64,000 bases of DNA from Bilabrum cf. latius (GCA_965178125.1 OZ237741.1:1116001-1180000), one strand, 5' to 3'; shown: positions 27,573 to 55,652, counted from the stretch's first letter. Notes: a model not told the origin generated them from the letters alone. A program made the numbers and translations.

Positions 27573-27875
27573 CTCTCGCAGTCCATATGAAACCCGTAGT
27601 ATACTACGGGTTTCATATGGACTGCGAGAGTAGAGTATAGGGGATTTTACTTTTGTTAAAAGTAATTACTTTCCATGAATTGTACAAGAGTCGAAATTTC
27701 TGAATGGGTTATTCTGTACGTGCAGAGATGGATCGGGAGAGAGTGTTGCTGGGCGCGAACAGATTCTCCTGCGAGTTGCTGTGGATTCCGCAATTCCTTA
27801 ATGGATATAATTTACTTCTCTAGGGGTTTCAAACGGGCGAGGGGCGGTCGCGGAGCGCACGTGCGCAGCGCGTGG
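27573..27875 (+). repeat. Left terminal inverted repeat, starting with a perfect 58-bp palindrome (27573-27630)
   Basis: CTCTCGCAGTCCATATGAAACCCGTAGTA|TACTACGGGTTTCATATGGACTGCGAGAG; the remainder is an imperfect reverse complement of 55361-55594. Confidence 0.95.
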
Positions 27876-28338
27876 TTCAGGTCCTCGATACCTCTCTTTG
27901 CACCCCTGATTTATGATCTTTCCGCCATGCCCTCCCTTTCCTGCTTAGCACTAGTATGGTTTGATCTCTTACACATGTGTATAATGTTCAAGGATCTAAT
28001 GCTTTGATCCATTCGCCCCTGAATTGGTCGTGAGGCATCAACCGTGAGGCATTGCTCCGTTCCTATGTAGACCGGAGCACTTTCCTTTGTAGATCGGAGG
28101 TGCCTCACCATTTCCTCGTGCCTCTCCTTGCCAATCAAGAGCAACAATTAAACTTCTACCCAGACCATTATATCATTTACTATACTATCCACCTATTGTG
28201 TTGCACCCTGCTCTCTAACCTCTTTCCTTAACGAGTGATACCCCTCGCAAATTTCTCACAACTACAAGTGCAATCTGCAACCTTTACATTTTTACATTTC
28301 ATAAAATTGAAACCTTTTTTCTACCATTATTATAGTAT

Positions 28339-29571
28339 ATGAGTTCTACTAACACACTAGTACAAGAAATCAAAGCATGGCTAGCCACACAGTACCACAA
28401 TCCCAAAACCTTGGGCAACTACCATCGCGAGTGCAACACCGTTCTCCGCTCCCTACTCCAAAAGATTGGATGCAACCCCGATGCCCCTCTATCCCAAGAA
28501 CAAATAGATACCGCCATGAAACAACTCAACAGCACCTATGCTTCGATGCGATGCTACTACGCCCTGCACCACCTAACAGCCTACCTCGGATGCCAAGGCT
28601 GCCAGAGCGAGCGCTTTCACCTGCTATGCAAAACCAAAGGCGAATGGGCGCTCAAGTTTCAATCAGATCGCGAAGAGCAACCCAAAAAGGATCTGCCTCT
28701 CACCCTTTAGCAGGCTCAAGAGCGGTTAGGTGCTGTGGATGCCACTGGGCTCAAGCAGCCCGAGCAGGTGGCACTCTTGTTTCTAACCATACTCTACTAC
28801 ATATCTCCAATCAGACCATCTGCTCTGTGCCAATTAGTTATCAGCACAGATCCATCTTTTCCCAATCGAATCGATCTCGATCGCAAGGTGCTGGTGGTGG
28901 GCAGCGACAAGGGGGTGGTCATTGGCACATCCTAGGAGCGAGATATGCCCATCAACGATCGTGTAGTGGAGATTGCCAGTCTACTATCCGATGATACACC
29001 CTTGTGGGGCAGTGGTTCAAAGAATTTCACCAGTCGGCTTGTAAAACCCTACAGCCTCAAGTGGCTGGAGTGCTACGTTTCACCCCAAGATATCCGCAAG
29101 ATCTGGAGTTCCCAGATGGCACGTGGTTTATCACTCGATCAACGCAAAGCACTGTGCAGTGCCATGGGGCATTCTAAGAAAACCCAAAAAACCTACTATT
29201 AGGAGTACAGAACCAGTGAGGAATAGGAGCATCTAAATGGATGCGATCTACCTGTACTGGGATTGAAATCGCCCAAACCTAAACCCAAGATCAAGATCAA
29301 ACCCAAGCAGATCTCACTACCTATAGTGGAAATAAAATCGCCTGAACCTATACTTAAGCCTATTAAACCTAAACATAACAAACAATCCACTCTACCTGTG
29401 ATCGAGATTGAAAGCGATGAAAAAATGAAAACTCAATCTCCTAACAAACCTACTCCACCTGAACCTTCGGTTCTCTTATCTAAACAAGATGGGTTGTACA
29501 ACCTACAAATCAATTACAAAGGGTTATCTAGAGATCAATACAAAACAATCATGGATTTACTTGAAATTTAA
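28339..29571 (+). CDS. Tyrosine recombinase / possible telomere resolvase (410 aa with TAG=Gln)
   Basis: Four ORF-track fragments in one frame joined by TAG. Catalytic-like motifs SPIRPS (R), SDKG (K), QDIRK (xxxR), MGHSKKTQKTYY (H...Y). Confidence 0.8.
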
Positions 29572-29876
29572 AAGAGTTCCACATTTTGTGTCTCACTTTT
29601 TATTTGGTTTAGTACGGATTTAATACGGAAGTTCTGTGTTCCATGTTTTTTTCACAATCTCTCTCAATATTTCATTTTTCACATTTCTCTCGAATTTTCA
29701 AATTTATCATAATATCTGTGGTTGTCAGAAAAAAGAAGGAAACATGGAACATTTCTTTTAATTTCTTTTAAATTATGGAACATAACTTAGAACAAACTTA
29801 GAACAACTCAAAAAAACTGAGAACACACTTATAATATACTCAAAACAAAATCATTTTAATCTTTGGACTAACTATA

Positions 29877-30617
29877 ATGAAACCGAAACTTCGAGTTTTG
29901 GAATTGTTTTGTGGCACAAAGTCAATCAGCAAAGCACTACACAAACTACTTGGTAATAGAGTCGAGGTTGTCTCACTAGATATCGAACAAAAATATAAAC
30001 CCACCATCTGCACTGATATCATGCAATGGGATTACAAACAAGCGTTCCCTGTGGGATACTTTGATTTTATACACGCATCCCCAGTTTGCCACTATTATAG
30101 TATGGGTAAAAGAATGGTACGGGATAAGAGCAATCTAGAAGCCAACCGGAAAGAATCAGATAAGATGGTGTAGCGAGTGTTGGACATAATTGATTTTTAC
30201 AAACCTTCGGCTTGGACCATGGAAAACCCCTCTACAGGTTGTTTAAAGACACGTGATGTGGTTGCTGGCATACCATACGTTGATGCTTGTTACTGTATGT
30301 ACGGCTATGTGTACTCAAAGAAAACTAGATTCTGGGGCAGTGCCAATCTTATCGATCAACTCCTGCCAAAGCTAAAAGTATGCTGTAAAAGCGATCATTG
30401 TCCACATTCATCAATCACCACCAAAGGTAACCTAAAGCACCATTACTCAATCGCTAGTGGACCATCAAAAGGTTATCGATCTCAAAAAATCATGTGGCAA
30501 ATGATGCGGTAGATTGTTGGAATGCACACTCAAACACCCACTGAAGTCCTGTATACCATACCTCCTGCCTTAACCGAAACCCTAATGAAAACCGTTATCG
30601 ATTTAGTGAATTCTTAA
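29877..30617 (+). CDS. C5 DNA cytosine methyltransferase, short viral type
   Basis: VLELFCGTKS (motif I), ASPVC (IV), MENP (VI), KKTRFW; two TAGs; TAA stop. Confidence 0.75.
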
Positions 30618-30718
30618 AATAATTCCATTTTTTACCTTTAATCCCGTACTAAATTGATACGGATTAAATGCAAAATAATATCTGGCTAGATACTCACACA
30701 GAGAAAATCCTGTTTTCA

Positions 30719-30880
30719 TTATCTAAGCCCAAACTTCTTGCATAATCTCTTGATCTCGGTACGGATCGCTTTGGGAGCACTAGTCTCAGCCCACCACTGG
30801 TTCAAGAAGGTTATCTCTTCGGTGTTTAACTTTCCTTTGGTAGTTTTCTTATCAAACAAGGCACTCTACTCTATTGGCAT
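30719..30880 (-). CDS. Small hypothetical protein (53 aa)
   Basis: ATG to TAA with one TAG; preceded by the conserved AAAyGATTTAAG motif at about -35. Confidence 0.55.
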
Positions 30881-31218: not shown

Positions 31219-31273
31219 CTTACTATATAATATCAAAAAATGTTTAAATCATTTTCCGAAATTCGATGATGAT

Positions 31274-31546
31274 TCATTTATTTGGTTATGATCAGAAAAA
31301 ACGAAAAAATGTACAGAATAATCGCAAAATGTCAAAAATGAGAGATTTTGAGATTACCGTTACTGAAAAAAAAATTATTGAAAAAAAACTCCTAAGGGCA
31401 ACTCAAAATCTCTAACCAAATATTCCTATCATAAACCAAGTATTTCCTATCATAAAAACTCTAAATTCCTATCATACTTCTGATCATAAAAATTACTTAC
31501 TACCAAATAATCCTATCATAAATCTTATCATAACCAAATAAAATAA
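31274..31546 (+). repeat. Internal inverted repeat, left arm, with CCTATCATA iteron-like units
   Basis: Imperfect reverse complement of 34176-34450; about 6 short repeat units. Confidence 0.9.
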
Positions 31547-31624: not shown

Positions 31625-34174
31625 ATGAATACGATCCAATCTGATTTGATGTTAAAACAATTAGTGCCTTGCGAAACTACAGGATTCAAAGTAAAAACCA
31701 AGATGAAATTTCCAATGGAAAAGGTCGAACTAGTTAAAAAGTACCTCAAGTTTATCATGCCCAAAATCATTCACACCTCAACCAAACAATAGGATGTTCA
31801 AGCACAAACATCTATGGTTGCTAACGCATGTAACTAGTGGCTTTCGGGATCAAAAGATAGTTCGATTCCTCTTACTTTCCATGTTAAAAACAACTTCGGC
31901 AGACTGGTCTCCAAAAAAGTGATAACTCCTGTTCAAATCATTCGTGGCATTCGGCACTATTTGTTTGAAAACCTGTACACCGATCTCGATATTGCCAATG
32001 CACACATCGAGTTTGCTTTCCAATTGTATCCCGTTTTAATGAATGGAGTTGTTCCTAAAGGCATTGAGTACATTGTTAAGAATCGCAAAGCCATCTTTCA
32101 ACCATTCATGGATGAACACAAACTAACCAAGGATCAATGCAAAACTTTCGTATTTACTGTTTGTTATAAAGGTTCACTGGAAAAAACCCTTAGAAAACTT
32201 GGATTTGGTGGAGTTGCCGATCTCAAAAAAAATAGCCGATGGGCATACAATAGAATTTAGGAAGCGGCTTCCGAGTTTGAAACCCTTGCCAAGGCGGTTA
32301 AACAGCACATGGGTGATACTTGGAAAATTGTTCATTGTTCTGATAAATCCATTCAACAAAATAGATAGGATGTGAGCAAGTTTAGCATTGTGATGCAACA
32401 CATTGAACACAAAATCACACTTGTGATTGCCGATTTCTTAAAACGCAAATATAATCTCGATGTTGCGGATTTCCAATTCGATGGTGTGTTTGTTGATAGC
32501 ATAAACCATAAACTAATCGAATCAATTATTCCTGAAATCGAATAGCACATTACCAAAATTACTGGTTTTAAACTCAAATTAACCGTTAAACCAATCGATG
32601 GCACTATGGTTCGAGAAATCGTAGAAAAACTACAAACCGAAATCAGTGATGATTCCCCCGAGTTATTAGAAGGATCTGAAGTGGATAGCGATTTAGAGGC
32701 ATCCGAAGTGTTTTGGAAAATCTACAAGAATCAAGTCGTAATTACCGAATCATCTATCTATTGTCTCGATAAATCCACACATCTCTACCAGCACTACAGC
32801 AAATTCAATAAATTTCACCCTCTTTTTAATATGGTTCAAACCCTACGCTTAACTCGTAACAACAAACCTTACTCAGCCAACAACACGAACGCCAAAAACA
32901 TTGTTGCCACCATTCTGGGAGATACCTCATTAATTGTCAATGATGTTGAATTTATCGATCAGATCAATCAATCCACCAAAGGATTACTGTTTTTTACCGA
33001 TAAAGTATGGAATTTCGCCACTCAAAAATTCGAGGAGTTTGAAAACCGATTTACACTATGTAACACTGGATACCCTGCTCCTATAGATGCATTTAAACAA
33101 CTAAATATTGAAAAGGATAACTACCAATCAATCCAGTACCTCAAGAAAACCATTTTTAACGCCTTCGAAACCCAAGATGAGGTTGATTACAACTTATTTA
33201 TTTTAGCACGAGCTCTTGCCGGACATGTTGAAGATAAATATTTTTCCTGCTGGGTTGGTGAGCGCGATTGTGGTAAAGGTACTTTTATGGATATCATCAA
33301 GTGTGCCATTGGAAACTATGCAAGGGATTCAGTTCCTCCTATTTGCTCTGATGTTTCCAACAGTGATGTTGCCCAACGAAACAGATTTGCTGTTACGAGC
33401 AAGATAAATACTGGTAGATTGTGTTTTACCAATGAAGCAGGGATTGCCAAAAAATCCAATTCAACCATTACCTTGGATGGTGAGGTAATTAAGAGTGTGG
33501 TTGCAAGTGGCGGTGATGTTTTCTAGACTCGTAGAATGTTTGAAAACGAACAATCAATGAAAAACAACTGCACCTTTTTCATGCTGTTTAACTCTTATCC
33601 AAAAGCCAATCCATACGATGCCTTTCAAACTTGTTTGCCTGTTATTTTTCCAAAGAAATTCAGCAAGAAAGATCCGGATGTGGTTGGATAGGAGGATTGC
33701 ATCACAGATCTAAGAGAAAAAATTAGATAGCCTGAAATCTATATTGCGTTCTTATGGTGTTTGTTACACGCTTACAAACCCATTCCGGCACGTAAATATC
33801 CTCGACCAGAATCCTTTTCTAAATCGATAATTGAGGTTGATTCTAAACCCTCTACTCGATTTGAAGTGTTTAAAAAATGCTTTCACAGAGATGAATCATC
33901 CGTCTTGTCTTGGAACGAAATACGGGAAGTATTTGATCAATACATTAAAATCTCTCCATAGGCACTCCGTAAATTCCTAGAAAAACAAAAGTGCTCTATT
34001 CTTAGAACCTCTTACAAAGGTAAAACCCTTAAAATAGTCAAAGGAGTTGAGTTACGGGATCAATCCGAACCACAAGATGAAGAAATACAGAGTTCCGAAC
34101 TCTCACTTAGTTAGTACCAGAAGCTCTTTCCTGATAGTTTTACTGATGATGATAGCGAACAATGTCAAATTTAA
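31625..34174 (+). CDS. TVpol (family A-related primase-polymerase) fused to D5-like SF3 helicase (849 aa)
   Basis: FGRL, YTDLDIANAH (motif A), MQHIE...FQFDG (motif C), Walker A GERDCGKGT, CFTNE. Single frame across many TAGs, ending in TAA. Confidence 0.85.
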
Positions 34175-34175
34175 T

Positions 34176-34450
34176 TTATTTTTATTTGGTTATGATAAGA
34201 TTTATGATAAGAATATTTGGTTACGAATAAAATTTATGATAGGAATTATGATAGGAAATTAGAGTTTTATGATAGGAAATAATTGGTTTATGATAGGAAT
34301 ATTTGGTCTGGATTTCAAACTGCTCTTAGGAGTATTTTTTTTTTTTAATTTTTTTTTTGAGTAGCGCTAATCTCAAAATCTCAGTTTTTTGACATTTTGC
34401 GATTATTCTGAACATTTTTCATTTTTTTCTGATCATAACCAAATAAATGA
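34176..34450 (-). repeat. Internal inverted repeat, right arm
   Basis: TATGATAGG/TATGATAAG units; mirrors 31274-31546. Confidence 0.9.
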
Positions 34451-34479
34451 AAATGAAATCATCTGATGTTGTTTTTTAA

Positions 34480-34743
34480 ATGACAGACAAACAACAGTTA
34501 GATACATTCAACAAATACTTTCAACCCTCGTTATCATCCGTTCTAATTTGGAGCGAGGTGCGAGAGAGGTTTAAACAAGAGATGCAAATCTCACCAATGA
34601 AACTACGTAAATTCCTAGTAAAGCAAGGATATCAAGTTCTCAGAGCCAGATATGAAGGTAAAATTACAAAGGTAGTTAGAGGAATTGAAATAAGGAAACT
34701 AAATTTAAATAACTATTCATAGTTATGGCTCATGGCTTTTTAA
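34480..34743 (+). CDS. Stand-alone copy of the helicase C-terminal (putative DNA-binding) domain
   Basis: SSVLIWSEVRERF...ISPMKLRKFL...YEGKITKVVRGIEIR aligns with helicase SSVLSWNEIREVF...ISP*ALRKFL...YKGKTLKIVKGVELR. Confidence 0.75.
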
Positions 34744-34802
34744 ACTGGATATCATTTAAAAAAGAAATCATTTAAGATTAATTTGTTTATTATAATATAT
34801 AT

Positions 34803-35312
34803 ATGGAAAGAAGCGACTCCGATGAATCAATTCCAGAGGATTTCGATACACGATTAACTATTCAAAACAAAAATTGTTTGCTAGAAGCTGTTTCTGCTAA
34901 TCTGATATTTGAAATCGATAAATCAGCAGTTCATCGCATCGGCACTCTATACAACGAACGTGTTGATGAAGGTACTGTACCAACTGGAATCCATTGGTCA
35001 CCATTGTTGGTTCATGTTACAACTCTTGAAAATAAATATGAGAGTAAACTCCTCCCTTATCCAGATGATTTACTTGATAAAATTGTCTATCCTGAAAAAT
35101 AGATCAGGCTTAAATCATTCGATACCCTAAAATCATTCGATAGCAATAAGGAAGGCGGATTTACCACACGTTACTTACTCGATTGTATTCTGGAACTCGA
35201 ACAAGAGGCTAGATTGCAATCCAAATGGTTTGGTGGTGTTGATATCCATCATCAGTATTTTGAAGGATTGTCTCCTAGAAATGGATACTGGTACGTTAAT
35301 TGGGGATCATGA
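34803..35312 (+). CDS. Hypothetical protein (169 aa) ending HHQYFEGL...WGS
   Basis: Open through one TAG to TGA; conserved upstream motif. Confidence 0.7.
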
Positions 35313-35376
35313 CTGAACAACTGGATATCATTTTAAAAGTAAATCATTTAAGATTAATTTGATTTACTTTGTATAT

Positions 35377-35679
35377 ATGGCGAAAGGAACTCATAACATT
35401 ATTTTAACAGTAACGGATTTGCAAGGTGATTAGCATACATATTTGGTTTACAATATCAATAAGGCTATAGAATTGCTAGAGCAACAGTATCCAGATGTGC
35501 TAAAACAACATCCCGTATCTCGATTAATTTTAAACCAACTTAAGTTGGGCAAATACCCTCATTCAATCACTAATTACAAAGTTGAACAGCGACCTGAGTA
35601 TTTAGCAACTTTACCCAAAGCAATCGATTGGGTGCCTTTACATAAACAAAACGTGTTTGTGCCAATTAAATCTAATTAA
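35377..35679 (+). CDS. Hypothetical protein (100 aa), paralog of 30928-31218
   Basis: GD*HTYLVYN aligns with the paralog's GDQ-YIVRN. Confidence 0.7.
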
Positions 35680-35734
35680 TCTTAAATCATTTCATTGGTA
35701 AATGATTTAAGATTAAAATGTTATATAGTTATAT

Positions 35735-36570
35735 ATGGGATACAATATAACGATTTATGAAAACAAAACAGGTACAAAGATGAAAGGAATGTATTTGAGA
35801 GACACTGTGTATTGATGCCAGAGTGTACGCGCAACCTAGTCTCGTTAACAATCAGACATGGCAAGACCTGACAAAGCTGTGCCTGTGCGCGACCCTTGAC
35901 CGGACTGACCGGGGCTGGGAAGAGCACGTGCACTACTCCGCCGAGGAGGAGGGGGTTGGGAGGGTGGGCAAAAATTACCCAATCTCCGCCCCTCTCCTGA
36001 ACACAGAGAGGGTATGCGCGTCATCGCAAGCAATCCGTTGGCTTGGTCGCACCTTCCCGGTCGCAACCGCCATCGGAACCCAACGAGACGTTCACGCGCT
36101 CCCACTCTGGCATCAACACCGAACCCCATCCGGCGTTAGGATCAGAAACTTTGATCACAATATTCATGGATGAGTGTGATGGAGTTGGATGGCATGGATA
36201 TCCGGATGTTGGAAGGAGGGTATCGTGCCGAAAACTAAAGATGTTTTCAGAGCAACTAGAAACACTGAAAGAGTATATTGATCAAAACAAAAGTTACATA
36301 AAGCCCTGGATTGAGAAACCAAAGTATAGTTGTATAACACCGTTACCAGAAATGAGTGAGGATGAATATGAAAGACGTGTAGAAGAGGATTTAGAAAATC
36401 AGTGGCAAGATAAAATAGATAGTTACAGCGATCAATTCAAAACATTTGGAACGTTTATACAATCAGTAGCAGATACTGATCACTTTTTTGAGGTACATTC
36501 AGAACGCTAGAAACATGCAAAAGATCCTTGTAGTGTCATAGTAAGAATTAGGAAGAACTTAAGGTTATAA
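35735..36570 (+). CDS. Hypothetical gene interrupted by a GC-rich intervening sequence
   Basis: Promoter motif plus ATG at 35735; AT-rich coding resumes at about 36139 and runs to TAA 36570. Removing the insert restores the frame. Confidence 0.5.
35976..36144. repeat. 169-bp GC-rich repeat, copy 1 (right arm of a ~310-nt fold-back)
   Basis: Appears identical to 46660-46828. Confidence 0.9.
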
Positions 36571-36623
36571 ATATATCATTTCATTGGTAAATGATTTAAG
36601 ATTAAAATGTTATACAATAATAT

Positions 36624-37192
36624 ATGAACAATTTAAAATGTTGTATTTGTTTGAATGAGATAACGGATCATAGGTATTACCATAAAGGGTGTTGTGGAGA
36701 AGGCACTATTTGTAATAGTTGTATGGAAACTATGCCACCGCAGGAAAAATGCCCGACTTGCAGATAGCCGTGGATTGATCTGAACCTGAACCACAACCAC
36801 AACCACAACCAGTTCTGTAGCGGAATCAAACCAATAATGCGTCAACGCAGATAAATTTAACTAAGGAGTTTGTAGATAGAGTGGGATATAGTGAATGGAT
36901 GCGTGAGGAGTTACAACGAAAGGCAGATGAAATGTTATACCAAAATGATTTTAATATATATATTGACCAATTAGAAGCAATATACATTAATACACAAACA
37001 GAACGAGTGCATATTTGTAAGATGCGAGAAGGACCATCAATTGATGGTAGTGATTATCTAGCCATTCTGTACATATTTATACTAAAAAAACAATTGAGAA
37101 CTAGCAATCACCCACGCTATAGTGTTCAACAAGATTGTAGAATCACTTGGCGAGAAATTTACGACAAATACAAATGCATAATTGGCGAATGA
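36624..37192 (+). pseudogene. RING-like zinc finger protein with apparent frameshift near 36775
   Basis: CCIC...H.GCC...CNSC...CPTCR*P; the EPEPQPQP linker and the 36881-37192 ORF continue in another frame (mutation or sequencing error). Confidence 0.6.
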
Positions 37193-37257
37193 TTGGAATT
37201 AATAATAAATCATTTTTTAAATAAATGATTTAAGATTAAAATGATATATTATAATAT

Positions 37258-37638
37258 ATGAGAACATCAGAATCAGAAATAGAAATAAAAATAAAAAAAG
37301 TATATGGATGTCACAGTGAAATATGTACAGGATTATCGGCTATAACAGCCATAAGTTTGTTCATGTATTTTTATGGACAAGATGAATACACAACGACAGT
37401 AAAGGTAGGTATTGGAATATTTGGTTTTTTTTCATATTTATATATTTGTATGAGCATTATGTAGTCAATGTTTAGTGTTCGTGCTATTAATGAAGAAATA
37501 CGACCAGAAATTGAGTTGTTGAAAGAACGACTTCAACAATTAGAATCCTCAGGACCAAGACCGATGACAAATGTTCCAAATCAACCAAACATAATAACTA
37601 TTGGATCAACAGCACCAAGACAACAAGAATCAGTATAA
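37258..37638 (+). CDS. Small protein with two hydrophobic segments (126 aa)
   Basis: Two predicted TM stretches; one TAG; TAA stop. Confidence 0.65.
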
Positions 37639-37660
37639 AAAAATACAAACATTAATTATA

Positions 37661-38257
37661 ATGCAATGTTGTATTTGTTTATAGGATATAAATGATTGGA
37701 AATATGTTCATAATGGATGTTGTAAAGATGGCACGTTTTGTAATGAGTGCCATAATTCTTTGGATACAACCAAGTGTCCAGTTTGTAGACAAGTTAATTC
37801 AGCAACTCAACCAATTCTAAGAACTGATAGCCAATCTGTAAGATTGCATTGGGGTTCAAATTATATATTTATATTAAGGGGGAAGTTACATTCAATTGAT
37901 GATTTGCCATCAATTAGGTGGAATAACACGATATGGCGTGACACAACGATGTGGCATAAGTATGGCAAACTTCACAGAGAAAATGGTCCAGCAGTTATTG
38001 AAAAATGGATACTACTGCATCGTACAACTAAAACATGGTACAAAAATGGTAAACGTCACAGAGACGGTGATCTACCAGCAGAAACTATAAATCATCAAGG
38101 TAATGTATCTAAAAAATGGTTCATAAATGGCAAACTTCACAGAGATGATGGTCCAGCAGTTATTAATTTTCATGGAACACAAACATGGTACAAAAATGGT
38201 GTTAAAGGTAAAATTAAACCAGTGTTCGTGAAAAGAAATACACAAAATGCTAGTTAA
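37661..38257 (+). CDS. RING-like zinc finger + WYKNGKLHR (MORN-variant/YwqK-like) repeat protein
   Basis: MQCCICL*D...CPVCRQ followed by repeats of WxxNGKLHRxxGPA. Confidence 0.8.
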
Positions 38258-38418
38258 TTTGAGTTTGAGTTTCTTACAATAAGAAACCCAGAAACAAATG
38301 ATGTTTTTGCAGAAAACATTGCTCGCTGCTGTGACTAGTGATACTAGGTATCACCTCGGAATCGAACCGAGATTTGCAGAGTGGAACGCAAATTAATTGC
38401 TGTTAGTTTTCTTTGGAT

Positions 38419-38489
38419 TTGGATCATCAGGAATCGAACCTGAATCTCTAGCTTATGAGGCTAGTATGCTACCGTTACAACATAATCCA
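38419..38489 (-). tRNA. tRNA with CAT anticodon (Met)
   Basis: Acceptor TGGATTA/TGATCCA, D region TTGTAACGGTAGCAT (weak stem), anticodon arm CTAGC-CTCATAA-GCTAG, T arm TCAGG-TTCGATT-CCTGA. Confidence 0.8.
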
Positions 38490-38650
38490 ATTGGTGAATT
38501 TAATGAGTAAATACTTAGAATCAATGGATTAACAAACAGGTATTTCCATGGTATTTCCTATACTAGTACGATGAAAACTAATTCAAATTTCGAATGACAA
38601 GGAGGAAACGCTTTTAAGATTCATCGCACAAAGTATATTGAGATATTTCT

Positions 38651-38974: not shown

Positions 38975-39062
38975 ATATTCTAATTAATGTAAATTAGCCT
39001 TAAATCATTTTTTATGTAAATGATTTAATGCATAAATGATATCCAGTTCTTTTAACAGCGCG

Positions 39063-40073: not shown

Positions 40074-40159
40074 GTACTATGGCAACGTGCTAATACGTGT
40101 GTTTTTATACTTCAAATACTATTCATAACTCATATAATATGATCAATGAAATTTAACTG

Positions 40160-42296: not shown

Positions 42297-42398
42297 TCGT
42301 GAGGAGATGAAATTCTCTCTATGTAAGTACACAGACAACTGTGATTTTGCGAATAATTCCGTATTAATTTAATTGATATTAATAGGGAATTTCTGAAA

Positions 42399-44897: not shown

Positions 44898-44931
44898 GAA
44901 ACTTGAAATTGATTTTCATTTGAATAATCTA

Positions 44932-45594
44932 ATGCCAGATTACTCAAAAGGAAAGATTTATATGATTTATTCAACAGAATCACCTGTGCTATTGCCATAT
45001 TATGGTAGTACAACACAAACTTTAAACTAGAGATTACAAGGGCACAAAGATAATTTTAAACGGTGGCAAGATGGGAAAACTACCAAGTGCTCCTCATTTA
45101 GATTGTTAGAACGCGATCTAGATAAGGTTGCAATCAAGTTAGTTGAAAAATGTCCTTGCTCAACTCGACAAGAACTAGAACTACGTGAAGCCGATTGGAT
45201 TAAAAGTCATCCTTGTATAAACCAGTGTGTTCCATCTGGAATTGTTGCGGGATCTATACAAGATTGGCAAAAACAATACTATCAAATTAATCGTGATAAA
45301 TACCTAAAACGTTATAAACAGTATAGTCAAGCTAATCGAGAGCGCATTCAAGTATACAGCAAACAATACCGCCAAGCTAATCGAGAGAAAATTAACGAAC
45401 GTAAAAAGCAATACCGCCAAGCTAATCGAGAGAAAATTAACGAACGGTAGCGCTAGAAGATTACTTGTGAATGTGGAACAGAAATAAGACGCGCGGGTAT
45501 AGCAGAGCATCGCCGTACTAAGAAACACCAGAAATGGCTTGAATAGCAATCAAGACCAAAGATTAAAGTGAAAATCAAGATTACTCCAATTTGA
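44932..45594 (+). CDS. GIY-YIG endonuclease with C-terminal zinc ribbon
   Basis: MPDYSKGKIY...YYGSTTQTLN*R...H, ELREADWI, CECG...H..TKKH. Confidence 0.8.
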
Positions 45595-45955
45595 CGTCAC
45601 GAAAGTACCCTTTTGGATATTTTAGCAACAGTTCCTCCCCTTGTTTAATATCCCGAGTTGGCAATAGCCATCTTTCTTTGATTATAACATTGGGTTGCAT
45701 ATCGGCACTCTTACCAAAGCCCACTCCATTTACAAAGTTAATAACGTGGGGCAATTCACGGGAACAGATCCATTTGCGGAATGGTCTCCTTAAACAGAAT
45801 CTAAAGTTACCATATTTGAGTCGAATATCAGCACTGCTCATTTCAATTCCAAAGAAATAAGCAATGGGTGTGCCTTTAGGGATATCTCTAGATGCAAATA
45901 CTCCATAACCAGCAATGGGACTTTTCTTTATTATTACTATATCATTTTGATACAT
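45581..45955 (-). CDS. Viral SET-domain protein
   Basis: KSPIAGYGVFASRDIPKG, NFVN, PNV, RDIKQGEELLLKY. Confidence 0.8.
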   Translation of the reverse strand: MYQNDIVIIKKSPIAGYGVFASRDIPKGTPIAYFFGIEMSSADIRLKYGNFRFCLRRPFRKWICSRELPHVINFVNGVGFGKSADMQPNVIIKERWLLPTRDIKQGEELLLKYPKGYFRDVKLE

Positions 45956-45999: not shown

Positions 46000-46629
46000 T
46001 TAGACAGCGTGTTTGAGTGATCGATAGGTAACCATAACCTCGGAGGCTAGTTGTCCAATGCTGTCGAAAGTTACGTATTCATCACCACCAAACTCAAACT
46101 GGCGAAATTGCTCTCTGGAGTGATCGAATACTTGTTTATCAGAATCACTGAGTTGTTTTCTGATTTGTTCAGAATAGCGTTTGCTTGGAATGGCAACACA
46201 GACACTTGTTCGCTTAAAGCGTTCGAGGGCTACATCTACATCACTAGTTACGAATATCGCCTTACGATCCTTGTTGATCAACCATTCACGTTTTACATCT
46301 TCAATTGCTTGAAGCACAAACTTACGCCGGATATCGGCACTTACCCCTTTATCTTGGTGTTGTTCACCCCAAGCTAATTTTAATTGTTCGGTAGCGTTGC
46401 CAAATACTGATGCTTTGACACATTCATCAAGATCAACTAATCTAAGATTCTTGTTGCGTGATTGAAGCGTCTTGCATAGCTAACTCTTACCACATTTGCT
46501 GGGAATTAAGAGCACTAGCTTTTTACGTTGATCAAGAGGGCGTTCAAATACATATTTATAAAGAAACCAAACGGCATGATAGCCTAAAGAAACTAATCCT
46601 GTGGCTACTACGGAAGTATTTATCTCCAT
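46000..46629 (-). CDS. Hypothetical protein with N-terminal hydrophobic segment and P-loop-like motif
   Basis: LVLLIPSKCGKS*LCK...LVDLDE; 209 aa; TAA stop. Confidence 0.6.
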
Positions 46630-46659: not shown

Positions 46660-46828
46660 TACCCAATCTCCGCCCCTCTCCTGAACACAGAGAGGGTATG
46701 CGCGTCATCGCAAGCAATCCGTTGGCTTGGTCGCACCTTCCCGGTCGCAACCGCCATCGGAACCCAACGAGACGTTCACGCGCTCCCACTCTGGCATCAA
46801 CACCGAACCCCATCCGGCGTTAGGATCA
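46660..46828. repeat. 169-bp GC-rich repeat, copy 2 (intergenic)
   Basis: Appears identical to 35976-36144. Confidence 0.9.
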
Positions 46829-46830
46829 TA

Positions 46831-47361
46831 ATGGCAGATATACTGACCGACCCAAGAAATACCAATAACCTTTATGCCCCAAGAATGGGAACAAAGACTT
46901 TACGCTTAAATCCAGTTTTAGGTCCAAGCGATGTATTAGTTGGCAACTCAAGTATTATATTTGAGGGCTCAATAGGAGTACCTTACATCCTTTCAGAAGC
47001 AGATGAGCTTAGATTTGGTAAAAACGCACTATCCGCTGGAATGAGATTATTGTTTAGCAATGATGGCGAGAATTGTAATATTGATCTGAATGGCACAGTT
47101 AATTCCACTAATGCAGTTAAAGCCCATGGATCAGGCAGTTGGACTGGTGGTTCATCATTGGCAACCTAGACCTTTTCAGCCCCAGGTGTGGTTGCAGGTG
47201 ATCACGTTCATATTACTACAACTACTGAACCAACAGGAGGGGCAACTGAGTTTTTGAAAGTGGTTGCAGGAACTGATGAGTTTACAGTCCATCTATCCGG
47301 TAACGCAGCAGGTAATGAGGATTATGCTTTCAACTATTTGGTTCTTCCTTAGAGTTCTTAA
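46831..47361 (+). CDS. G/T/S-rich beta-structure protein, candidate fibre/spike
   Basis: 176 aa through two TAGs; function inferred from composition only. Confidence 0.5.
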
Positions 47362-48124: not shown

Positions 48125-49258
48125 ATGAATTACGATAGCGTATTTAATGCTTTAGAACAGTGGAAGTTTCCTACCTTTTCAGTTGGAAAAACAAGACGTA
48201 AGATTTCAGGTGGAAAGAAAAGTATACCAACTTGTAACTTTGGATTGGTCTAGAAAATGTTTTCTAAAGATAAATCTTGGCAACCAAGTACTGTTATGGT
48301 TAAGAATCCCGAGATTCATCAAATGCTGGTGAAGTTGGGGCGCTAGATTGATCCTAATTTGCGTTTCAGCAATATAACCGTCAACAAAAACTTTTTGTGT
48401 GCCCCTCATACAGATAGCCTAAACAAAGGTATAACCATGATTGTGGCTTTTGGAAATTACAAAGGAGGAGAGTTAGTGGTAAAAAACTAGGATGGAACTC
48501 AATAGCAAATCGATATTAATCGGAAACCGTTTTACTTTTATGGTCACAGTTAGGAGCATTGGACAGCACCGTTCACAGGAACTAGATACAGTTTGGTTTT
48601 TTATAATCATCATCATCATTTGGTAGAGAGACCGCAAACTACTGATAGCAAGGTGATTAAGGAATTGTTAGGAAAAAAGATGGAATATACACAGTTTTTC
48701 AAGTAGGAGAAAGGGGAGAAGTGGTGTGATATCGGAGCAAATATTGGTGCATTTACAGCCAGATGTTAGATGCATGGAATAGCAATCAAGAGTTATGAAC
48801 CAGATGAGGGTAATTATAATATATTGGTTTAGAATTCTGTAACCCCCGATAATTGTTTTAACCAAGCGGTGGTGGCGGATAGTGAGACCCGAGAAATCCC
48901 TTTGTATCTAGCAAAATCAGAGTGGAATCATACCACCTTAAGAAAGGTGCGAGGAAGAAAACGGGTGATTGTGCCAGCCATTAGTTTTAAAAAAGCAATC
49001 GAGGGTTGTGATTGTGTTAAGATGGATATAGAGGGAGCAGAATTGCCGATCTTGGATCAATGTGATTTTACTGGATTGAAAAAGATGGTAGTAGCCTATC
49101 ATGTTAACTATGCTCCAGATTTAGATGAGTTATTGAGGCGAATAGAGAGATTAAAGACTTTCTTTCAAAAGGTACAACATGCACGACTACCAAAGCGAGA
49201 AGCCATGGCAAACAAGAGGGTGTTTCCAAATGAGGTCATGTTGTATTGTAGTAATTGA
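48125..49258 (+). CDS. 2OG-Fe(II) dioxygenase (TET/JBP-like) fused to FkbM-family methyltransferase (377 aa)
   Basis: VNKN..CAPHTDSLN...GNYKGGEL...FNG..*EHWT.PF.GTRYSLVFY, then DIGANIGAF, YEPD, KMDIEGAE; one frame with several TAGs. Confidence 0.8.
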
Positions 49259-49372: not shown

Positions 49373-49615
49373 TTATTCAATTTTCTTTTCTTTTTTCCAC
49401 TGGGCAAACCACGAGTGGGAACTAGCATCTTTGGTAAAATTGCCGACGTTCTTGTATCGCTCGGGGTCCTTTTTGCGCATAACGGGGTACATTTCTTTTA
49501 CAAACAGGTTATAGTTGCTGAGTTTCTATTTGGGTCTCTACTTGAGTTGTTGTTTCTTGAGTTTAACAAGTTCGTGTAGGCGTTTAAGGCTAATCTTTCG
49601 AAGATCGATATCCAT
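49373..49615 (-). CDS. Small basic protein, HMG-box-like
   Basis: KLSNYNLFVKE...WKK; 80 aa with two TAGs. Confidence 0.5.
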
Positions 49616-49641
49616 ATATTATTGTAATCTATATTATTTTC

Positions 49642-51069
49642 TTATCTTAATTTCCATTGCTTTAATAAATCCATAACTTGTTTAACGTTTGCTTTAGTTC
49701 CTTTATTGAGTAACTTGCTAACCTCTGCTTGTTGTTTACGAGTGAGTACATTGGATAAATCTTGTTTTATCCATTGAAGCGAGGTACGCTTTGCGTTTGG
49801 AAAACGTAAGAACGCCTCTAAATGGTTGGCGGTGTGATTGATTTGTGCAAGTTTAGGATTTTCGAGTGTTTTAAGGGCAGCTCGGCGTTGTTTGAGAGTA
49901 CCTTTATTGGATTGAATCACTCGTTTACTTGCTTTGTACCGCATTCCTTGTTTGCGATATTCCCGACTATCGTTTAGTAGTTGGGTTTGGATTTCCTTGG
50001 GATTGGCAAGAGGTTCGAATAGGTAAACCACAGTGATTTCTTGGTAGTATTTGCCATCAAACATGATTAAATCTAGTTTGGCAAAAGGGTCTTTGCTGAT
50101 AATAGATTGTATTCTGGGTTCTAACTGTTTTAGATTTTTGACTGTGGGTTTGTAGTGTTTGCCACCTAGTTTAAGTTCCACTGGTCGAAGGGGAGAACTT
50201 TTGGAACTCAATAATTCTACTAGATGGATTAAGTGTGGTACAAACATTGGAATATCTTTTTGTGTTAGTTGTTGAAAGAAATCGTAATCACTAGCGTACA
50301 AGGAAATAACGGGATTGGTTTGCGAACCTTTAAGTTCAATCACGGATTGTTTGGAGGTATTATCTAATTCTAAAAGATTGGCAACTTTGAGTAGTGGTTT
50401 AGCAAAGTTAAACAAGTTGAATTTGCGAATAATGGGATCAGTTTGTGCTTTACCGCCTTGAATTACAAAGTTTCCAAGACTGTGTGGATCTAGACCAGCT
50501 TTGCGATTGATGCGTTTGCTAAAAGGATTTCCAAGAGAAATAGGATCGCTACTAACGTTGTAACTTTTGGTTTTGCCTTGGGTGGCAAATCGTCGAATGG
50601 TGTTGCCAACTAAGTTTCGAGCGGTAGGGGCTGTTCCAGCATTCCAACCCACACTTTCGATTCCTAATTGCTATCCAATCTAATTGGCTAAAGCACCTCC
50701 TAATGAGTGTCCAGTAAGCACAACTTGTCCATTGCTAAGTTGTTTGATTTCCTCAACCTTTTTTTTCTCTCGTTGAAATCTATTTCCATTAGGAAGTGTG
50801 TTTTTAATGATTCGAGCATCGTCTAATAGATCCTCAGGATCGCTGACAACTGTTCCTCGAAAAGCAACAATATATTGATTTTTATCGTTACGATAGACGG
50901 ATCGTTTGGTATCGCTTAAACTGGGGATGTACATATATTTTCCTTGTTTGGAGATTATTGTGGTTCGGGCATTGGGTGATTGATAGGCTTGACCAGATGC
51001 TTTGACTAGGTGTTGCAACTATCTGACTTCGTTTAAATTACGGGCTTTTTTTCGCTTTCCAGCAAACAT
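49642..51069 (-). CDS. Lipase (alpha/beta hydrolase) fused to nucleotidyltransferase-like domain (475 aa)
   Basis: VAFRGT and GHSLGG, then KGS...ASDYD; ORFs join across TAGs. Confidence 0.7.
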
Positions 51070-51114
51070 TCTATATTACATAGTGAGATATATAATTTAG
51101 AATGAATTTATTGA

Positions 51115-52836
51115 TTAGTAAGAACCTCCCATTGCATCTGCCTAGCTTGAACTCATCACTTGACCTCCAACCATCTAAACCCCACCGCCAACGTGAGTTG
51201 TTCCAGCCCCCGCAAGAGCCATAACCTGTCCTAGAGCGGTACTATCACCAGCGACCTTGTTTACACCTGGTAGGTTGCGTACAAATTTGCTGGCTTTTTG
51301 GACAAATGGTGTAGCTTTCTTGACGAAGTTCTTGAATTTCTTCCAACCGCGTCCACCGCGTCCGCCTTGAATAGCATGTTCGCTGTCATCCTCAAGATAG
51401 ACCACAGGAGCGCTGGTGAGTGTTTTGGCTACTGGAATAACAACCTCTTTGGCTTGAATGCGTCCATTTTTAAATTCAATGTATCCGCCATACATGAAAG
51501 GGATTTGGATGGTGTAATCGCCGGCTGCGATTGCATTGGCTGTGCGGTTGGCAATGGTGAGTTGTAGGCTGGTGAGTCTAAACTCTTTCTTGACACCACT
51601 CATTAATTCGGCATCTAGTGGCATCTAACTGGGGCGTAAAGGTAAGATGCTCCAATTGGCGAGTACCTAATTGGCAAGGGTACTTTCAGCGGGGTTGAGT
51701 AGTAAACCAGCAAACTAGGCATAACTACCAACGTAACCATTTGAAACGGCTAAATCGTAAAGATCGCGAGTGCTGTGATCATCAAGAAGTTTGAATTTAT
51801 TGCCGACGGTGCAACTTATGTGAGTAATAGGTAGAGTTATATCAGGACCATAATCATCAGCACCACGATTGACCACAACATGAGGAACAAACATATCGGG
51901 AACAACGTCTTCTCTGATGATGGGAATGTTGACAACGGTTTCGCTATTAGCAAGTAAAGCAGTATTACCCACAAATTCATGAGGAATTGTTTTTTCCCAT
52001 GGGTAGGCGTAATTGGTGCTGAGAGGAACTTGGAGTGCAGCGTTCTTAGTGTGTAGACGCATATTTACAGTTCCTCCTTCTAATGCAACTCTTAAGTCGT
52101 CAAGACCAGAACGAACAAGGCTGGCGGCAACGTTATTAAGTTTTAGTTCAAGACTCCATTGATCCATGCTATTGCATGGTTTTGGGTACTCTGATTTGAA
52201 ATCAAAAGCATCGGAGGGTAGACGGCAAATTAAACTAGGAATAGTAAATCTAACGGTGGCGGCATCTACAGCCTCTAGAGTGGCATTGTACCGTAAGCCT
52301 AAACCGCGAGTGTTGGTGTTTGAGGTGGAGTTAAAACCATCCCGAAGCACATTGCTTTGTGCCAGAGGTACATATTTTGAACTGGTATCAGGTTCAGGAC
52401 CATTGGTGATAAGGGAGTTGACTTCAATGGAGTTCATACCAGCCCAGATGTATCGCATTTTGGATGGCTCGGTTTGGATATTTTGTCCTGCTTGATTGAA
52501 ATCGATTCTCTCAACAACTGATGATTCGCCGAAGGTGGCGATACCAAGGTTGTTTTTAAGGTCATCGGGGACAAGATTGCCACCACCATTGAGAGTTAGT
52601 AAGAAACTAAGGTTCTAGAATTCCATATCGGGAATACCAAGCAATCCATCAGCAGGATCAAACTGCCAACGGTAGCTCCAACCAGTGTTTGAAAGTGGTT
52701 TGGTTGATGGGTGATCCTCATAAACGGCATTACGTGCATCGGCTTGACTTTGGTACTTAAGTTGAGAGGGGGCGGTAAATTGGTAGCTTTTGCTGATTCC
52801 AATTTCTAAAGGGAGATTAGAGTTAATTTCACTCAT
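51115..52836 (-). CDS. Virophage major capsid protein (573 aa)
   Basis: Resembles Sputnik-type MCP as recalled: PDITLPI, LYDLAVSNGY, GG..WKKFKNFV, GG-rich tail. Three ORF fragments joined by TAG; TAA stop. Confidence 0.9.
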
Positions 52837-52861
52837 TATAACTAGGTTGTAGAAAAAAAAA

Positions 52862-53773
52862 TCAAGTGAATTCGCTAATTTCCTTAAACAAACCTTTGAT
52901 ATCGCCGGCTGATTCGCTGGGTAAACTTATTCTTGTTTCAACACCTCTATAATCTAACCAGTATAATTCAAAGGTTAAGTTTTTAGTACTACCAGATACA
53001 TCCAGCATTTGAGTCCATCGTGGAGTGCTACTAGCATTATATAAGAAAGATCTATAAGGAGATCCGTTGGTCATAACCACTTTAAAATCGGTAACAATAC
53101 TTTCGCTTTTATCGGAGATTTTGCCTTGTGAGTTGAGTGGTAAAGGTGTTAGTTCTTGATTAATGGGTAAACCCCGTGCTTTGATAAGGATACGGGCAAC
53201 AGGATCGATATTTTCGAGTGAATCGGTGAATTGTGTTTCGAGATCATTTTCTAGTAGTAGCCAGTTCCAACTATCGGATGGATTGCCGCTGCCTGATTCA
53301 AAACGAAAAGTGTGTAACATTCGGGTTAATCTGGGGTTGAATCCAAGACGATTGGCGGAACGAAAGGCGGTATTGGAGTTGATGGAAAATAGTTTGCCGT
53401 CGAAACTAACTGATGGTTGATCACCTGTACCAATAGATAGATTATCACATGCAACTTTGATTGAGGCATTGAGTTCGGCGACGAGATCCTGCATGTTGTA
53501 GTACAGATCCTCGGAAAAGGTAAGATCAATTATTTCGGCAGTGCCAGAATTGGGTTCAACACTAATTGAAAGTGGATTGAGTGGTGCTTGGAAAACAGGT
53601 AAGGCAACACCGTTGCTAATAAACCATCTAACAATGCCAAACAGGTATCCTTTGTTGGGTTTGAGGAAGGTTGATTGTCGTGTTTGTTCAAGATTGGTTT
53701 CAAGATCGGTTTTGCCTTGGTTGAACTACTATAGGTTTACGTATTGGTAATCAATTACGTGACTTTTTGCCAT
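52862..53773 (-). CDS. Minor capsid protein (penton)
   Basis: N-terminal QTRQSTFL..Y.FGIVRW....LPVF; C-terminal IVTDF, RW, LYWLD; lies between protease and MCP. Confidence 0.8.
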
Positions 53774-53796
53774 ATAATTACTACCAGTGATAATAA

Positions 53797-54318
53797 TTAC
53801 TGAGTTATTTGAAACACTAGTTTATCTAGATTGGGTTGATTGTTTAGTTTGCTAAGGTATTTGAGGTACTTGTGGTATTGATCATTGCTCATCTAGCGAT
53901 TGGCAAGGCGTAAGACGCAGTGTCGACCACATGTTGCGATATCATCGGAGTATTGTTGGTGTGGGTAGTGTGAATAATCAACTAACTTACCAGTTTGCCA
54001 GAGTAACTTGGTGAGGTTTTGGTGGTTGAGTTTGCGATCGTATAGGATTTGTTTTTGTGCACCAGAAAGGTTTACTTTGTGTGTATCAGGAAGTTCGCCA
54101 TAAGGATCGTAGAAATAGATAACATTGGGAGTTTGAATAACACAGGTGTAGTGACCGCTGATGGTGTTGCCGGATTGTTCTTGAGGGTAAAAAAGTACGA
54201 AATCGCCTTGGGGTAAACCATGATGTAAGATATCTTTGTATTGTATCCAATTGAAATTGGGTATGCTGAAACGATTGGCAAGATGAGTTAGTTGTGTGGG
54301 GTTTAGGGTTTGATCCAT
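53797..54318 (-). CDS. Virophage/adenain-like cysteine maturation protease
   Basis: GHYT (His), FYDPYG (Asp), HQQ (Gln), TCGRHC (Cys). Confidence 0.9.
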
Positions 54319-54998
54319 ATAATCTTAGGTAGAGAAAATTAAGGATTGAGGATAATTATATTGAACTAGAATATCAATATGAAAATCCTATTGATGAACC
54401 AGACAACTTTTAGAACTGTAAGAATGAACGGTACTATTCATTAGAATAGTTTTTGAATCGTTCAAACCGTTTCCGTTCTAATAAAATTATTTGGTAATCG
54501 TGTTCCTTTCCGTATTAAAAATTTAACTCGGATAAAATTTAAATTCGTATTATTTTATTTAGACGTTTATAATTTACATTTATAAATGTAAAATGTAAAC
54601 CACATGTTAAATAATATGACGACTAAAAAAAACACGAGTAAACTTTTTAATTCAGAATAGGAACACGATTACCAAATAATATTTTAATACGAAATCCCAA
54701 CAAACCAAGCCTATTTGTTTAATACGGAATCTGTAGGTGTGCAAGTAAAATCTTGAAAACGGATTTTAAATTTCATGAAATTTAAAAAAATAATGTAAAT
54801 ATTTATGTAAATAACTGTCAACGTAATTCTTTAAAATTCATGAAAATTAAAGAATCTGTCAACGTATTTTATTAAATTTCATGAAATTTAAATAAATTGT
54901 AAACGTGTCAACATGTCAACATGTCAACGTGTCAACGTGTCAATGTGTAAACGTGATTATATAATTTTTGAAAAAATGATTTATGATTTTTAGTATTA

Positions 54999-55343
54999 AT
55001 GAATAATCTAGAAAACGATGCTAAAAAACTTTTAGAAATCCTAGCAAAAGTTCGTGCTATTGAAGATGGAGTGTTAATAGCATTAAGCAACAAAAAAGAG
55101 GGTGATTTTATAACAGCAATGTCATTAAAACACGTAATGAAACTATATGAAAAGGTTTGTGGTTTGTCGATGGATAACATATTAATAACACTAAATGCGA
55201 TAAAAGATAAAAAATCACCTGGTATGAAAGTAGTAAAAGGGATGCTTGGAGCACTATTATGTGGTGATACATTTAATGTGGCAAGTGTGAATTCAAAGAA
55301 TGAATTATCATTGATACGTTTAACAAACAAGATCAACAGATAA
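54999..55343 (+). CDS. Hypothetical protein (114 aa)
   Basis: ATG to TAA ORF adjoining the right TIR. Confidence 0.55.
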   Translation: MNNLENDAKKLLEILAKVRAIEDGVLIALSNKKEGDFITAMSLKHVMKLYEKVCGLSMDNILITLNAIKDKKSPGMKVVKGMLGALLCGDTFNVASVNSKNELSLIRLTNKINR

Positions 55344-55360
55344 TTTATGTAAGATGTGTG

Positions 55361-55652
55361 CCACGCGCTCCGCACGTGCGCTCCGCGACCGCGTGAAACC
55401 CCTAAAGAAGTAAAATCATCCATTCAGAAATTCAGGGAATCCACTTGAACTCGTAGGAGAATCTGTTCTTGCCCAGCAACACTCTCTCCCGATCCACCTC
55501 CACACGAACAGAATAACCCATTCAGAAATTTCAACTCTTGTACAATTTATGGAAAGTAATTTCTTTTGTTAAAAGTAAACTCCCCGATACTCTACTCTCG
55601 CAGTCCATATGAAACCCGTAGTATACTACGGGTTTCATATGGACTGCGAGAG
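55361..55652 (-). repeat. Right terminal inverted repeat, ending in the same perfect 58-bp palindrome (55595-55652)
   Basis: Palindrome identical to 27573-27630. Confidence 0.95.

Follow-up and report, generated by a model that had tools for sequence, protein, structure and literature searches.

Mavirus, a virophage with a protein-primed DNA polymerase B (PolB), uses the standard genetic code, and Sputnik has a circular genome without an rve integrase. Endogenous virophages are thought to defend their hosts inducibly against giant viruses, and a changed genetic code is a barrier often considered in relation to viruses and mobile DNA. Both meet in the locus described here, which lies within a 64,000-nucleotide stretch of Bilabrum cf. 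latius DNA (GCA_965178125.1 OZ237741.1:1116001-1180000; we call this whole stretch the window, and all positions are counted from its first letter). Our reading, to which we give a probability of about 0.88, is that positions 27574-55651 are a full-length mavirus-type provirophage of a GC-rich eukaryote, placed by its rve integrase in a satellite-like repeat, written in a host code in which TAG stands for glutamine, and recently mobile.

Among the closest described systems, the low-GC endogenous mavirus-like elements (EMALEs) resemble mavirus in having protein-primed PolB and the standard code (Hackl et al., 2021, PMC8547959; this and the other papers are cited for those portions of their text that were available to us). 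According to a 2026 preprint on mosaicism, the replicase that accompanies an rve integrase is usually PolB, and the one that accompanies a tyrosine recombinase is of the PolA or archaeo-eukaryotic primase (AEP) kind. Since the rve-PolB pairing is the usual one, a preliminary description of the locus found the mixture of genes odd and called the element an unusual type; the mixture had nonetheless been described already. Virophages with D5 primase-helicase replicases are reported by Haro et al. (2026, bioRxiv 10.64898/2026.07.28.741278), and a subset of them carries an rve integrase together with a tyrosine recombinase (Yrec). The combination of rve, tyrosine recombinase, long primase/helicase and terminal inverted repeats (TIRs) in the absence of PolB is therefore a published one, and the gene set occurs in two described lineages, the mid-GC EMALEs and the Halocafeteria virophages.

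The capsid genes tie the element to mavirus. They form a module on the minus strand in the order protease (PRO)-penton (PEN)-major capsid protein (MCP). The MCP (51115-52836, 573 aa with six TAG codons) matches the virophage family PF22031 (1.7e-11) and, among PDB entries, mavirus MCP 6g45 at 1.4e-10 against 5.7e-5 for Sputnik V20; when a 25-member profile of the MCP family is used, the values become 7e-137 over the full length for mavirus and 9.4e-40 for Sputnik V20. The penton, or minor capsid protein (52862-53773, 303 aa), aligns over residues 27-299 with mavirus penton 6g41 at 1.8e-22, and with the Sputnik minor virion protein at 3.5e-4. A Sputnik-like MCP, as originally proposed, is not what these comparisons return, since the match to mavirus is stronger than that to Sputnik by many orders of magnitude. 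Judged by these matches, MCP and penton are of the mavirus type and are predicted to build the capsid, MCP being of the double jelly-roll type of virophages.

The third gene of the module encodes a protease of 173 aa (53797-54318) with 12 homologs in the database, in the alignment of which H56, D71, Q121 and C130 are invariant. Its model has a predicted local distance difference test (pLDDT) score of 85, and the top Foldseek matches include OtDUB, adenovirus protease, NEDP1/SENP, African swine fever virus pS273R and poxvirus I7L; the modelled fold is that of a clan-CE cysteine protease, like the adenain/Ulp1-like maturation proteases. The probable packaging ATPase lies apart from the module on the plus strand (43887-44897, 336 aa), with Walker A GMSGSGKT, Walker B VLMFDD and a match to phrog_2666 (1.4e-6). 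It is 26% identical (E 5e-21, 336 vs 336 aa) to the ATPase of a metagenomic virophage contig, L002, where the gene stands directly before PRO-PEN-MCP. The four virophage core genes noted in the preliminary description are thus represented, the packaging ATPase as a probable one with weak family matches, and gene lengths are full in comparison with homologs (573 vs 574 aa for MCP, 849 vs 847 aa for the replicase). Together with the exact borders described below, this bears out the view of the element as an intact endogenous virophage.

How far is this capsid from known ones? A word-indexed search found two MCP relatives, at 72% and 76%. An exhaustive HMMER search with MCP over 1.84 billion representatives gave 71 matches at E<=1e-3, of which 25 reach E<=1e-10 and 2 reach E<=1e-30, with the nearest full-length relative at 28% identity. 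A tblastn search of the phage collection with MCP gave no match, and scans of IMG/VR with a close MCP alignment and with the replicase homolog P0088 found no relative; a scan with the single protein P0005 gave two contigs, L001 and L002. The latter (18.7 kb, 29% GC), the closest relative for which neighbouring genes can be read, shares with the element the PRO-PEN-MCP order, the ATPase, rve, a lipase and a 209-aa gene. On these sequence comparisons the MCP is best placed within the mavirus-type capsid family as a divergent branch, of a lineage new to the databases searched. L002 also has two large open reading frames (ORFs), at 12535-14292 and 1-1227 (585 and 409 aa), without a Pfam family at E<=0.001.

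The possibility that the element is a Polinton or a Polinton-like virus (PLV) and not a virophage is best considered here. Its rve integrase, inverted repeats, primase-helicase and integration in a protist genome are all common to PLVs and Polintons (PMC4642659, PMC10120064). Against this, the MCP belongs to the virophage family PF22031, the PDB matches of the capsid proteins are to mavirus and Sputnik only, and a Pfam search of the 33 ORFs of the element (defined below) finds no PolB family in any of them, the absence of protein-primed PolB having been pointed out from the start. We regard this alternative as very improbable, though it survives better than the others.

The second strand of evidence concerns the genetic code. 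Counted in stop-to-stop frames, ORFs of at least 150 aa in the element rise from 13 (2,923 aa) to 27 (8,311 aa) once TAG is freed, and freeing TAA or TGA brings a far smaller gain in long frames. Re-translation with table 15, as the preliminary description had suggested, opens 33 non-overlapping ORFs of at least 60 aa that start with ATG and cover ~85% of the element; they stop at TAA (23) or TGA (10). TAG is found in frame 81 times in 7,942 codons, compared with 52 for CAG and 289 for CAA, and at least one TAG is present in 26 of the 33 ORFs. The expectation that standard-code annotation would shred the genes is thereby borne out, and it has in fact happened to the protease, whose database entry P0076 is cut at its TAG to 141 aa. 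In close homologs the TAG sites are occupied by glutamine: for MCP at five of six sites in P0001 (72% identical) and at all three sites covered in P0002, and for the replicase at seven of ten sites in P0088 (77% identical), where the other three are S, E and L.

The same code is needed outside the element. An Rrp41-like RNase PH gene in the host flank (61031-62341) contains four in-frame TAG codons, three of them within 15 codons in a conserved strand region that aligns with solved Rrp41 proteins. A gene similar to those for kynurenine aminotransferase (18532-19923) has three in its conserved domain, and in the PDEase gene region (5570-9917) in-frame TAG likewise falls within the conserved domain. 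A fibronectin-III (fn3) ORF of 1,490 codons (2-4471) holds seven TAG and no TAA or TGA (~21 expected from composition). Complete ORFs of the host flanks terminate at TGA or TAA. We infer that TAG is glutamine, and TAA and TGA are stops, in the nuclear code of the host. Because the host genes also need TAG to be read through, the recoding is a property of the host and not a viral trick. The genes of the element, being in the host code, would be translatable by the host tRNAs and release factor, and it is the standard-code reader who sees fragments.

Recoding by the virus in a host with the standard code, as in code-15 phages, would fit with the excess of TAG over CAG in the element (81 vs 52) and with database records in which the relatives P0001 and P0088 are uninterrupted and the protease of the element is cut at TAG (P0076). 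Host ORFs with domains supported by Pfam or PDB matches nevertheless need TAG read through, and the only tRNA gene of the element is Met-CAU, so there is no viral suppressor; we give this explanation even less credence than a Polinton-like origin. A decayed relic, in which the TAGs would be true premature stops in a standard code, deserves less still. The longest ORFs under table 11 are indeed short, and many endogenous virus genes show stop codons, often through assembly errors (Bellas et al., 2023, PMC10120064). Decay, however, is hard to square with TAG as the sole interruption, TAA and TGA never falling inside the 33 ORFs, with the alignment of TAG to glutamine in close homologs, with TAG in conserved domains of host genes in both flanks, and with gene lengths equal to those of the homologs.

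The borders of the provirophage can be placed exactly. It measures 28,078 bp with a GC content of 37.9%, against 62% in the flanks; along the window the GC profile stays at ~0.55-0.72 overall and drops to 0.30-0.48 across 28.0-55.6 kb. A repeat finder returned inverted arms at 27568-27789 and 55436-55657 (222 nt, 91%) with more matching pieces inward, and gapped alignment lengthens them into a left TIR of 302 nt (27574-27875, plus strand) and a right TIR of 291 nt (55361-55651, minus strand), 87.6% identical over ungapped columns. Identity is complete over the outermost 65 nt, and the alignment contains a single 11-nt indel. Perfect 58-nt palindromes at both tips (27573-27630 and 55595-55652) extend over the outer TIR ends. 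The target sequence GCAGC is duplicated at 27569-27573 and, beside the right tip, at 55652-55656; the duplication is 5-6 bp long, depending on whether the terminal A at 27568 is counted (AGCAGC). We take the target duplication of mavirus to be likewise of 5-6 bp. The TIRs, the duplication and the borders are as the preliminary description had given them, and an insertion into a chromosome with inverted repeats and a short target duplication is the form in which EMALE-type provirophages are found.

When the flanks are joined with one copy of the duplication, the core AGCAAGCAGCTGCA of the restored site recurs at 27063 and 55803 in adjacent repeat units, and with one mismatch allowed it has three matches compared with 0.03 expected. 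The empty site itself is present in another sequencing run, X9, as a 717-nt contig that equals 55651-56257 with no mismatch over 607 nt of flank; 57 letters precede 55651, and the 30 displayed are identical to window positions 27538-27567. It follows from this contig that the insertion is real, that it made a 5-6 bp duplication and that it is polymorphic between closely related genomes. A free virophage genome misjoined to host DNA by the assembler would give the sharp GC break at both ends, and none of the X1 contig pieces listed bridges a junction, but exact inverted-repeat ends beside a 5-6 bp duplication, flanks that join seamlessly as a contig of another run and flanks of the same repeat family make such an artefact scarcely believable.

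The surroundings of the insertion (23728-24946, 25786-26484, 26500-27570 and 55650-55850) are satellite-like, with tandem units of 204-206 bp at 97% identity and related units of ~80 bp on either side. Further into the right flank, a 319-bp unit is present in two tandem copies with 99% identity (56340-56967).

Copies in other sequencing runs point to recent movement of the family. At least half of the sampled words of 49600-56300 are held by six runs, which come from two studies and carry two organism labels, and the window may itself derive from one of these; a third label reaches 21%. Run X1 contains near-identical contigs (18 differences in 6,345 nt), X2 has many variants, and X7 has a 14.6-kb contig, ~94% identical, that extends from the integrase to the protease. 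Several variant contigs join across whole genes: 44887 to 45580 in X2, with nine other letters between, which skips a GIY-YIG-like gene; 39045 to 40159 in X1 and X2, which skips a C5 methylase; and 41367 to 42313 (short side 30), which skips a RING-MORN gene. Accessory genes are therefore gained and lost between copies. Given these differences, and a vacant insertion site in one run, recent mobility of the family follows.

The element itself appears to have been invaded. A GC-rich (~60%) insert with its own inverted ends lies at 35809-36147, and a second, partial copy at 46662-46831 is identical to the 3' part of the first. In X1, X2 and X7 the depth over it exceeds that of adjacent bins by a factor of 15-30, and each of the four runs compared, X9 among them, has it in high copy; variant contigs that lack it exist. 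In X9 the cover of the compared stretch consists of this GC-rich repeat and the right end only, and the uncovered parts do not count as evidence of absence. The insert is probably a high-copy, host-derived repeat resembling a miniature inverted-repeat transposable element (MITE). Nested host transposons have been reported both in EMALEs (Hackl et al., 2021, PMC8547959) and in the Halocafeteria virophages (Haro et al., 2026, bioRxiv 10.64898/2026.07.28.741278).

Turning to the genes for integration and replication, the proposed rve (DDE, retroviral-type) integrase is confirmed at 40160-41365 on the minus strand (401 aa; PF00665 at 9.4e-17, IS481-type transposase at 1.1e-31). The integrase homolog on L002 carries a clear chromodomain, unlike the one in the window. 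The candidate tyrosine recombinase is an ORF of 410 aa with four TAG codons at 28339-29571 (plus strand), in which R...K...R...GHS...Y motifs similar to boxes I and II can be recognised by eye (PIRPSAL ... DIRKIW ... MGHSKKTQKTYY). It has no Pfam match at E<=0.01 and no PHROG match at E<=0.001, so the earlier assignment as a tyrosine recombinase is not confirmed beyond the motifs seen by eye; we still consider such a function reasonably probable.

The replicase (31625-34174, plus strand, 849 aa with ten TAG codons) had been named a TVpol-helicase. TVpol has been defined as a homolog of PolA that, in Sputnik and some PLVs, is joined to a superfamily-3 helicase (Yutin et al., 2015, PMC4642659). 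The helicase part of the name stands: the C-terminal half contains a D5/P4-type primase C-terminal and superfamily-3 helicase region (PF19263 at 2.8e-6, phrog_1156 at 1e-12, and TIGR01613 at 9.1e-9 over residues 461-674). The TVpol part is not confirmed: the N-terminal ~420 aa match no family and have one homolog in the database. An AlphaFold model of this N-terminus built from two sequences (pLDDT 39) is too poor for fold comparison, and the protein atlas gives, as leads, Preplasmiviricota clusters that bear D5_N.

The replicase gene is bracketed by two inverted arms of ~280 nt that are ~85% alike. The left arm (31273-31543), just upstream of the gene, contains five CCTATCATAA iterons on one strand, and the right arm (34180-34451), downstream of it, contains six on the opposite strand; the arms hold 11 of the 12 matches of this motif in the window, several of them spaced 21-22 nt apart. 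Just past the right arm, an ORF of 87 aa (34480-34743, plus strand) is a paralog of the replicase C-terminus (BLASTP 40% identity, E 7e-20, to residues 745-839). The arrangement of the iterons suggests that they may be an internal origin or operator to which the C-terminal domain of the replicase binds. It may equally be pictured as a movable cassette, in which an iteron-flanked replicase displaced an older gene and left the tail of that gene behind.

The accessory genes are varied. On the minus strand at 39063-40133 there is a C5 cytosine DNA methyltransferase of 356 aa (PF00145 at 4.5e-63), absent from some copies in other runs, and a weak C5 methyltransferase-like ORF of 246 aa lies on the plus strand at 29877-30617 (PF00145 at E 2.8e-4, below the curated cut-off). 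A 377-aa protein (48125-49258, plus strand) fuses a TET/JBP-like 2-oxoglutarate- and Fe(II)-dependent (2OG-Fe(II)) dioxygenase to an FkbM methyltransferase (PF05050 at 4e-9, PF12851 at 2.9e-6, TIGR01444 at 7.3e-12). This fusion and the strong and weak C5 methylases suggest that the DNA of the element is methylated by its own enzymes, perhaps with oxidation of the methyl groups. Three ORFs are of the RING type, and two of these also have MORN-like repeats: a RING finger and MORN-like repeat protein at 41427-42296 (plus strand; Pfam, repeat finder), its paralog at 37661-38257 and a small ORF at 36624-36854 found by family search. The remainder includes a SET-domain protein (45581-45955, minus strand, 124 aa; PF00856 at 1.4e-6), an HMG-box protein, a lipase-like alpha/beta hydrolase (49642-51069, minus strand, 475 aa; PF01764 at 2.4e-4) with a homolog in L002, and the conserved 209-aa protein (46000-46629, minus strand), also with a homolog there (BLASTP E 1.9e-16). 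The 220-aa GIY-YIG-like ORF (44932-45594, plus strand), missing from a variant copy, was recognised by eye from its N-terminal motif and has no family match.

The tRNA-Met gene (anticodon CAU) is on the minus strand at 38418-38490 (ARAGORN; Rfam RF00005, 61.5 bits). Metagenomic virophages also carry tRNA genes, often Met-CAT (Paez-Espino et al., 2019). Just downstream, on the minus strand at 38340-38400, there is a second tRNA-like T-arm (GGTTCGATTCC) in a stretch where ARAGORN and Rfam call no tRNA; it may be a tRNA remnant. In the cluster of small genes at 34740-39060, a common palindrome and motif (AAATCATTT...AAATGATTTAAGATTAA) occurs ~30 nt before ATG, and MCP, protease and the ORF at 28339 have TTTCTAC-like motifs upstream instead. 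The two motif types may reflect two classes of promoter; alternatively, a hairpin terminator may precede a promoter.

Several observations weigh against our reading and should be set beside the evidence above. Among distant homologs (20-37% identity) the residues opposite TAG vary, and most are not glutamine: of the six MCP sites, four are predominantly non-Q across 23 distant homologs, one MCP site being D in nearly all, and opposite the single TAG of the protease 11 of 11 homologs have D, S, P or A. The glutamine assignment therefore rests on three close homologs. The inverted repeats differ at ~12% of positions in addition to the 11-nt indel, perhaps a sign of some age or of imperfect copying. 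The C-terminal 146 aa of the integrase have no chromodomain match in Pfam. Family matches of the ATPase are weak, to HerA/VirB4 only weakly and to phrog_2666, a terminase family, at the value given above, and its profile finds P-loop noise only in PDB. The promoter motif ATTTAAGATTAA stands upstream of 5 of 30 ORFs, a modest enrichment. Finally, the window contains no giant-virus sequence, and dependence on a giant virus is argued by analogy.

With this in mind, the following life cycle can be proposed for the provirophage. The rve integrase would insert the element into the satellite-like repeat, making the 5-6 bp duplication, and by analogy with mavirus and EMALEs the element would lie dormant in the chromosome until the cell is infected by a compatible giant virus. 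The transcription machinery of that virus would then fire the short AT-rich promoters of the element. The primase-type helicase fusion would copy the genome, possibly from the pair of iteron arrays on either side of its gene. The capsid, built of MCP and penton, would be matured by the clan-CE protease, and the ATPase, putatively of FtsK/HerA type, would pack the DNA. The two C5 methylases, the TET/JBP-FkbM fusion, the SET, HMG-box and RING-MORN proteins, the lipase and tRNA-Met may serve in DNA or chromatin modification or in entry.

About one codon in 100 is TAG, and TAG is commoner than CAG; the element would therefore not be expressible in a standard-code cell. We tentatively suggest, at somewhat less than even odds, that this virophage lineage is locked into a host lineage with UAG as glutamine, which would imply an undiscovered giant virus working in the same code. 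If this is true, a protist gains no protection from the giant virus/virophage system by reassigning a stop codon. The relatives at 72-77% protein identity, which are recorded uninterrupted, may lie across the code boundary. The question raised is which giant virus infects the recoded protist, and whether that virus also reads TAG as sense. There is a practical consequence too: such elements are broken up by standard gene callers, and surveys of endogenous virophages will consequently overlook those in recoded hosts.

With respect to the code, the nearest published case is that of the PLV-like elements endogenous to Streblomastix strix, which are also integrated small DNA viruses written in the non-standard code of their host, a usage interpreted there as indicating that the association is long (Bellas et al., 2023, PMC10120064). 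They differ from the element in belonging to a metamonad that uses table 6 (TAA and TAG both glutamine) and in having an MCP of the PLV group, where here TAG only is reassigned and the capsid is of the virophage type. In the portions of the literature covered, we found no report of a virophage in a TAG = glutamine code; the gene maps and tables for EMALEs and Halocafeteria virophages could contain nearer matches to the element. Reports of an ochre tRNA in one virophage clade (Paez-Espino et al., 2019), of mitochondrial UGA as tryptophan (Cafeteria genome preprint) and of plastid UGA as tryptophan (Phaeocystales paper) have no bearing on recoded virophages, nor does the account of Crassvirales in the Antarctic virus paper, and the available text of the 2026 mosaicism preprint is silent on the subject.

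With respect to gene content, Sputnik resembles the element in its non-PolB replicase fused to a superfamily-3 helicase and possibly in a tyrosine recombinase, and its capsid proteins are much weaker matches (5.7e-5 and 3.5e-4). Mavirus (6g41-6g45) provides the closest solved relatives of both MCP and penton and shares the rve integrase and inverted repeats; the identity of the MCP to its nearest database representatives is 20-28%. The virophages of Halocafeteria seosinensis are similar in their swapping of replicases (D5 primase-helicase with or without protein-primed PolB), in the subset with both rve and Yrec, in the host transposons they contain and in their inverted repeats and target duplications (Haro et al., 2026). 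The GC content of that host is 47%, and the available text of the same paper makes no mention of genetic code, stop codon or TAG.

The closest resemblance is to the mid-GC EMALEs, types 5-8, of Cafeteria burkhardae (Hackl et al., 2021, PMC8547959). Like the element, they are low-GC islands with inverted repeats in a GC-rich host and have capsid genes of the mavirus type with PEN before MCP; they combine rve, a predicted tyrosine recombinase (here a candidate) and a long primase/helicase ORF with no protein-primed PolB; host transposons are nested inside them, and their insertion sites vary between strains. The element is larger, 28.1 kb compared with 5.5-21.5 kb for complete EMALEs, and lower in GC (38% vs 47-53% in the mid-GC group; PMC8547959). 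As far as the published descriptions of EMALEs allow the comparison, the element is alone in reading TAG as glutamine and in its additional TET/JBP-FkbM, SET, HMG, RING-MORN and tRNA-Met genes. The architecture is of a known type; the novelty lies in a capsid lineage that is divergent and in the full adaptation of a virophage to a host in which TAG is glutamine.

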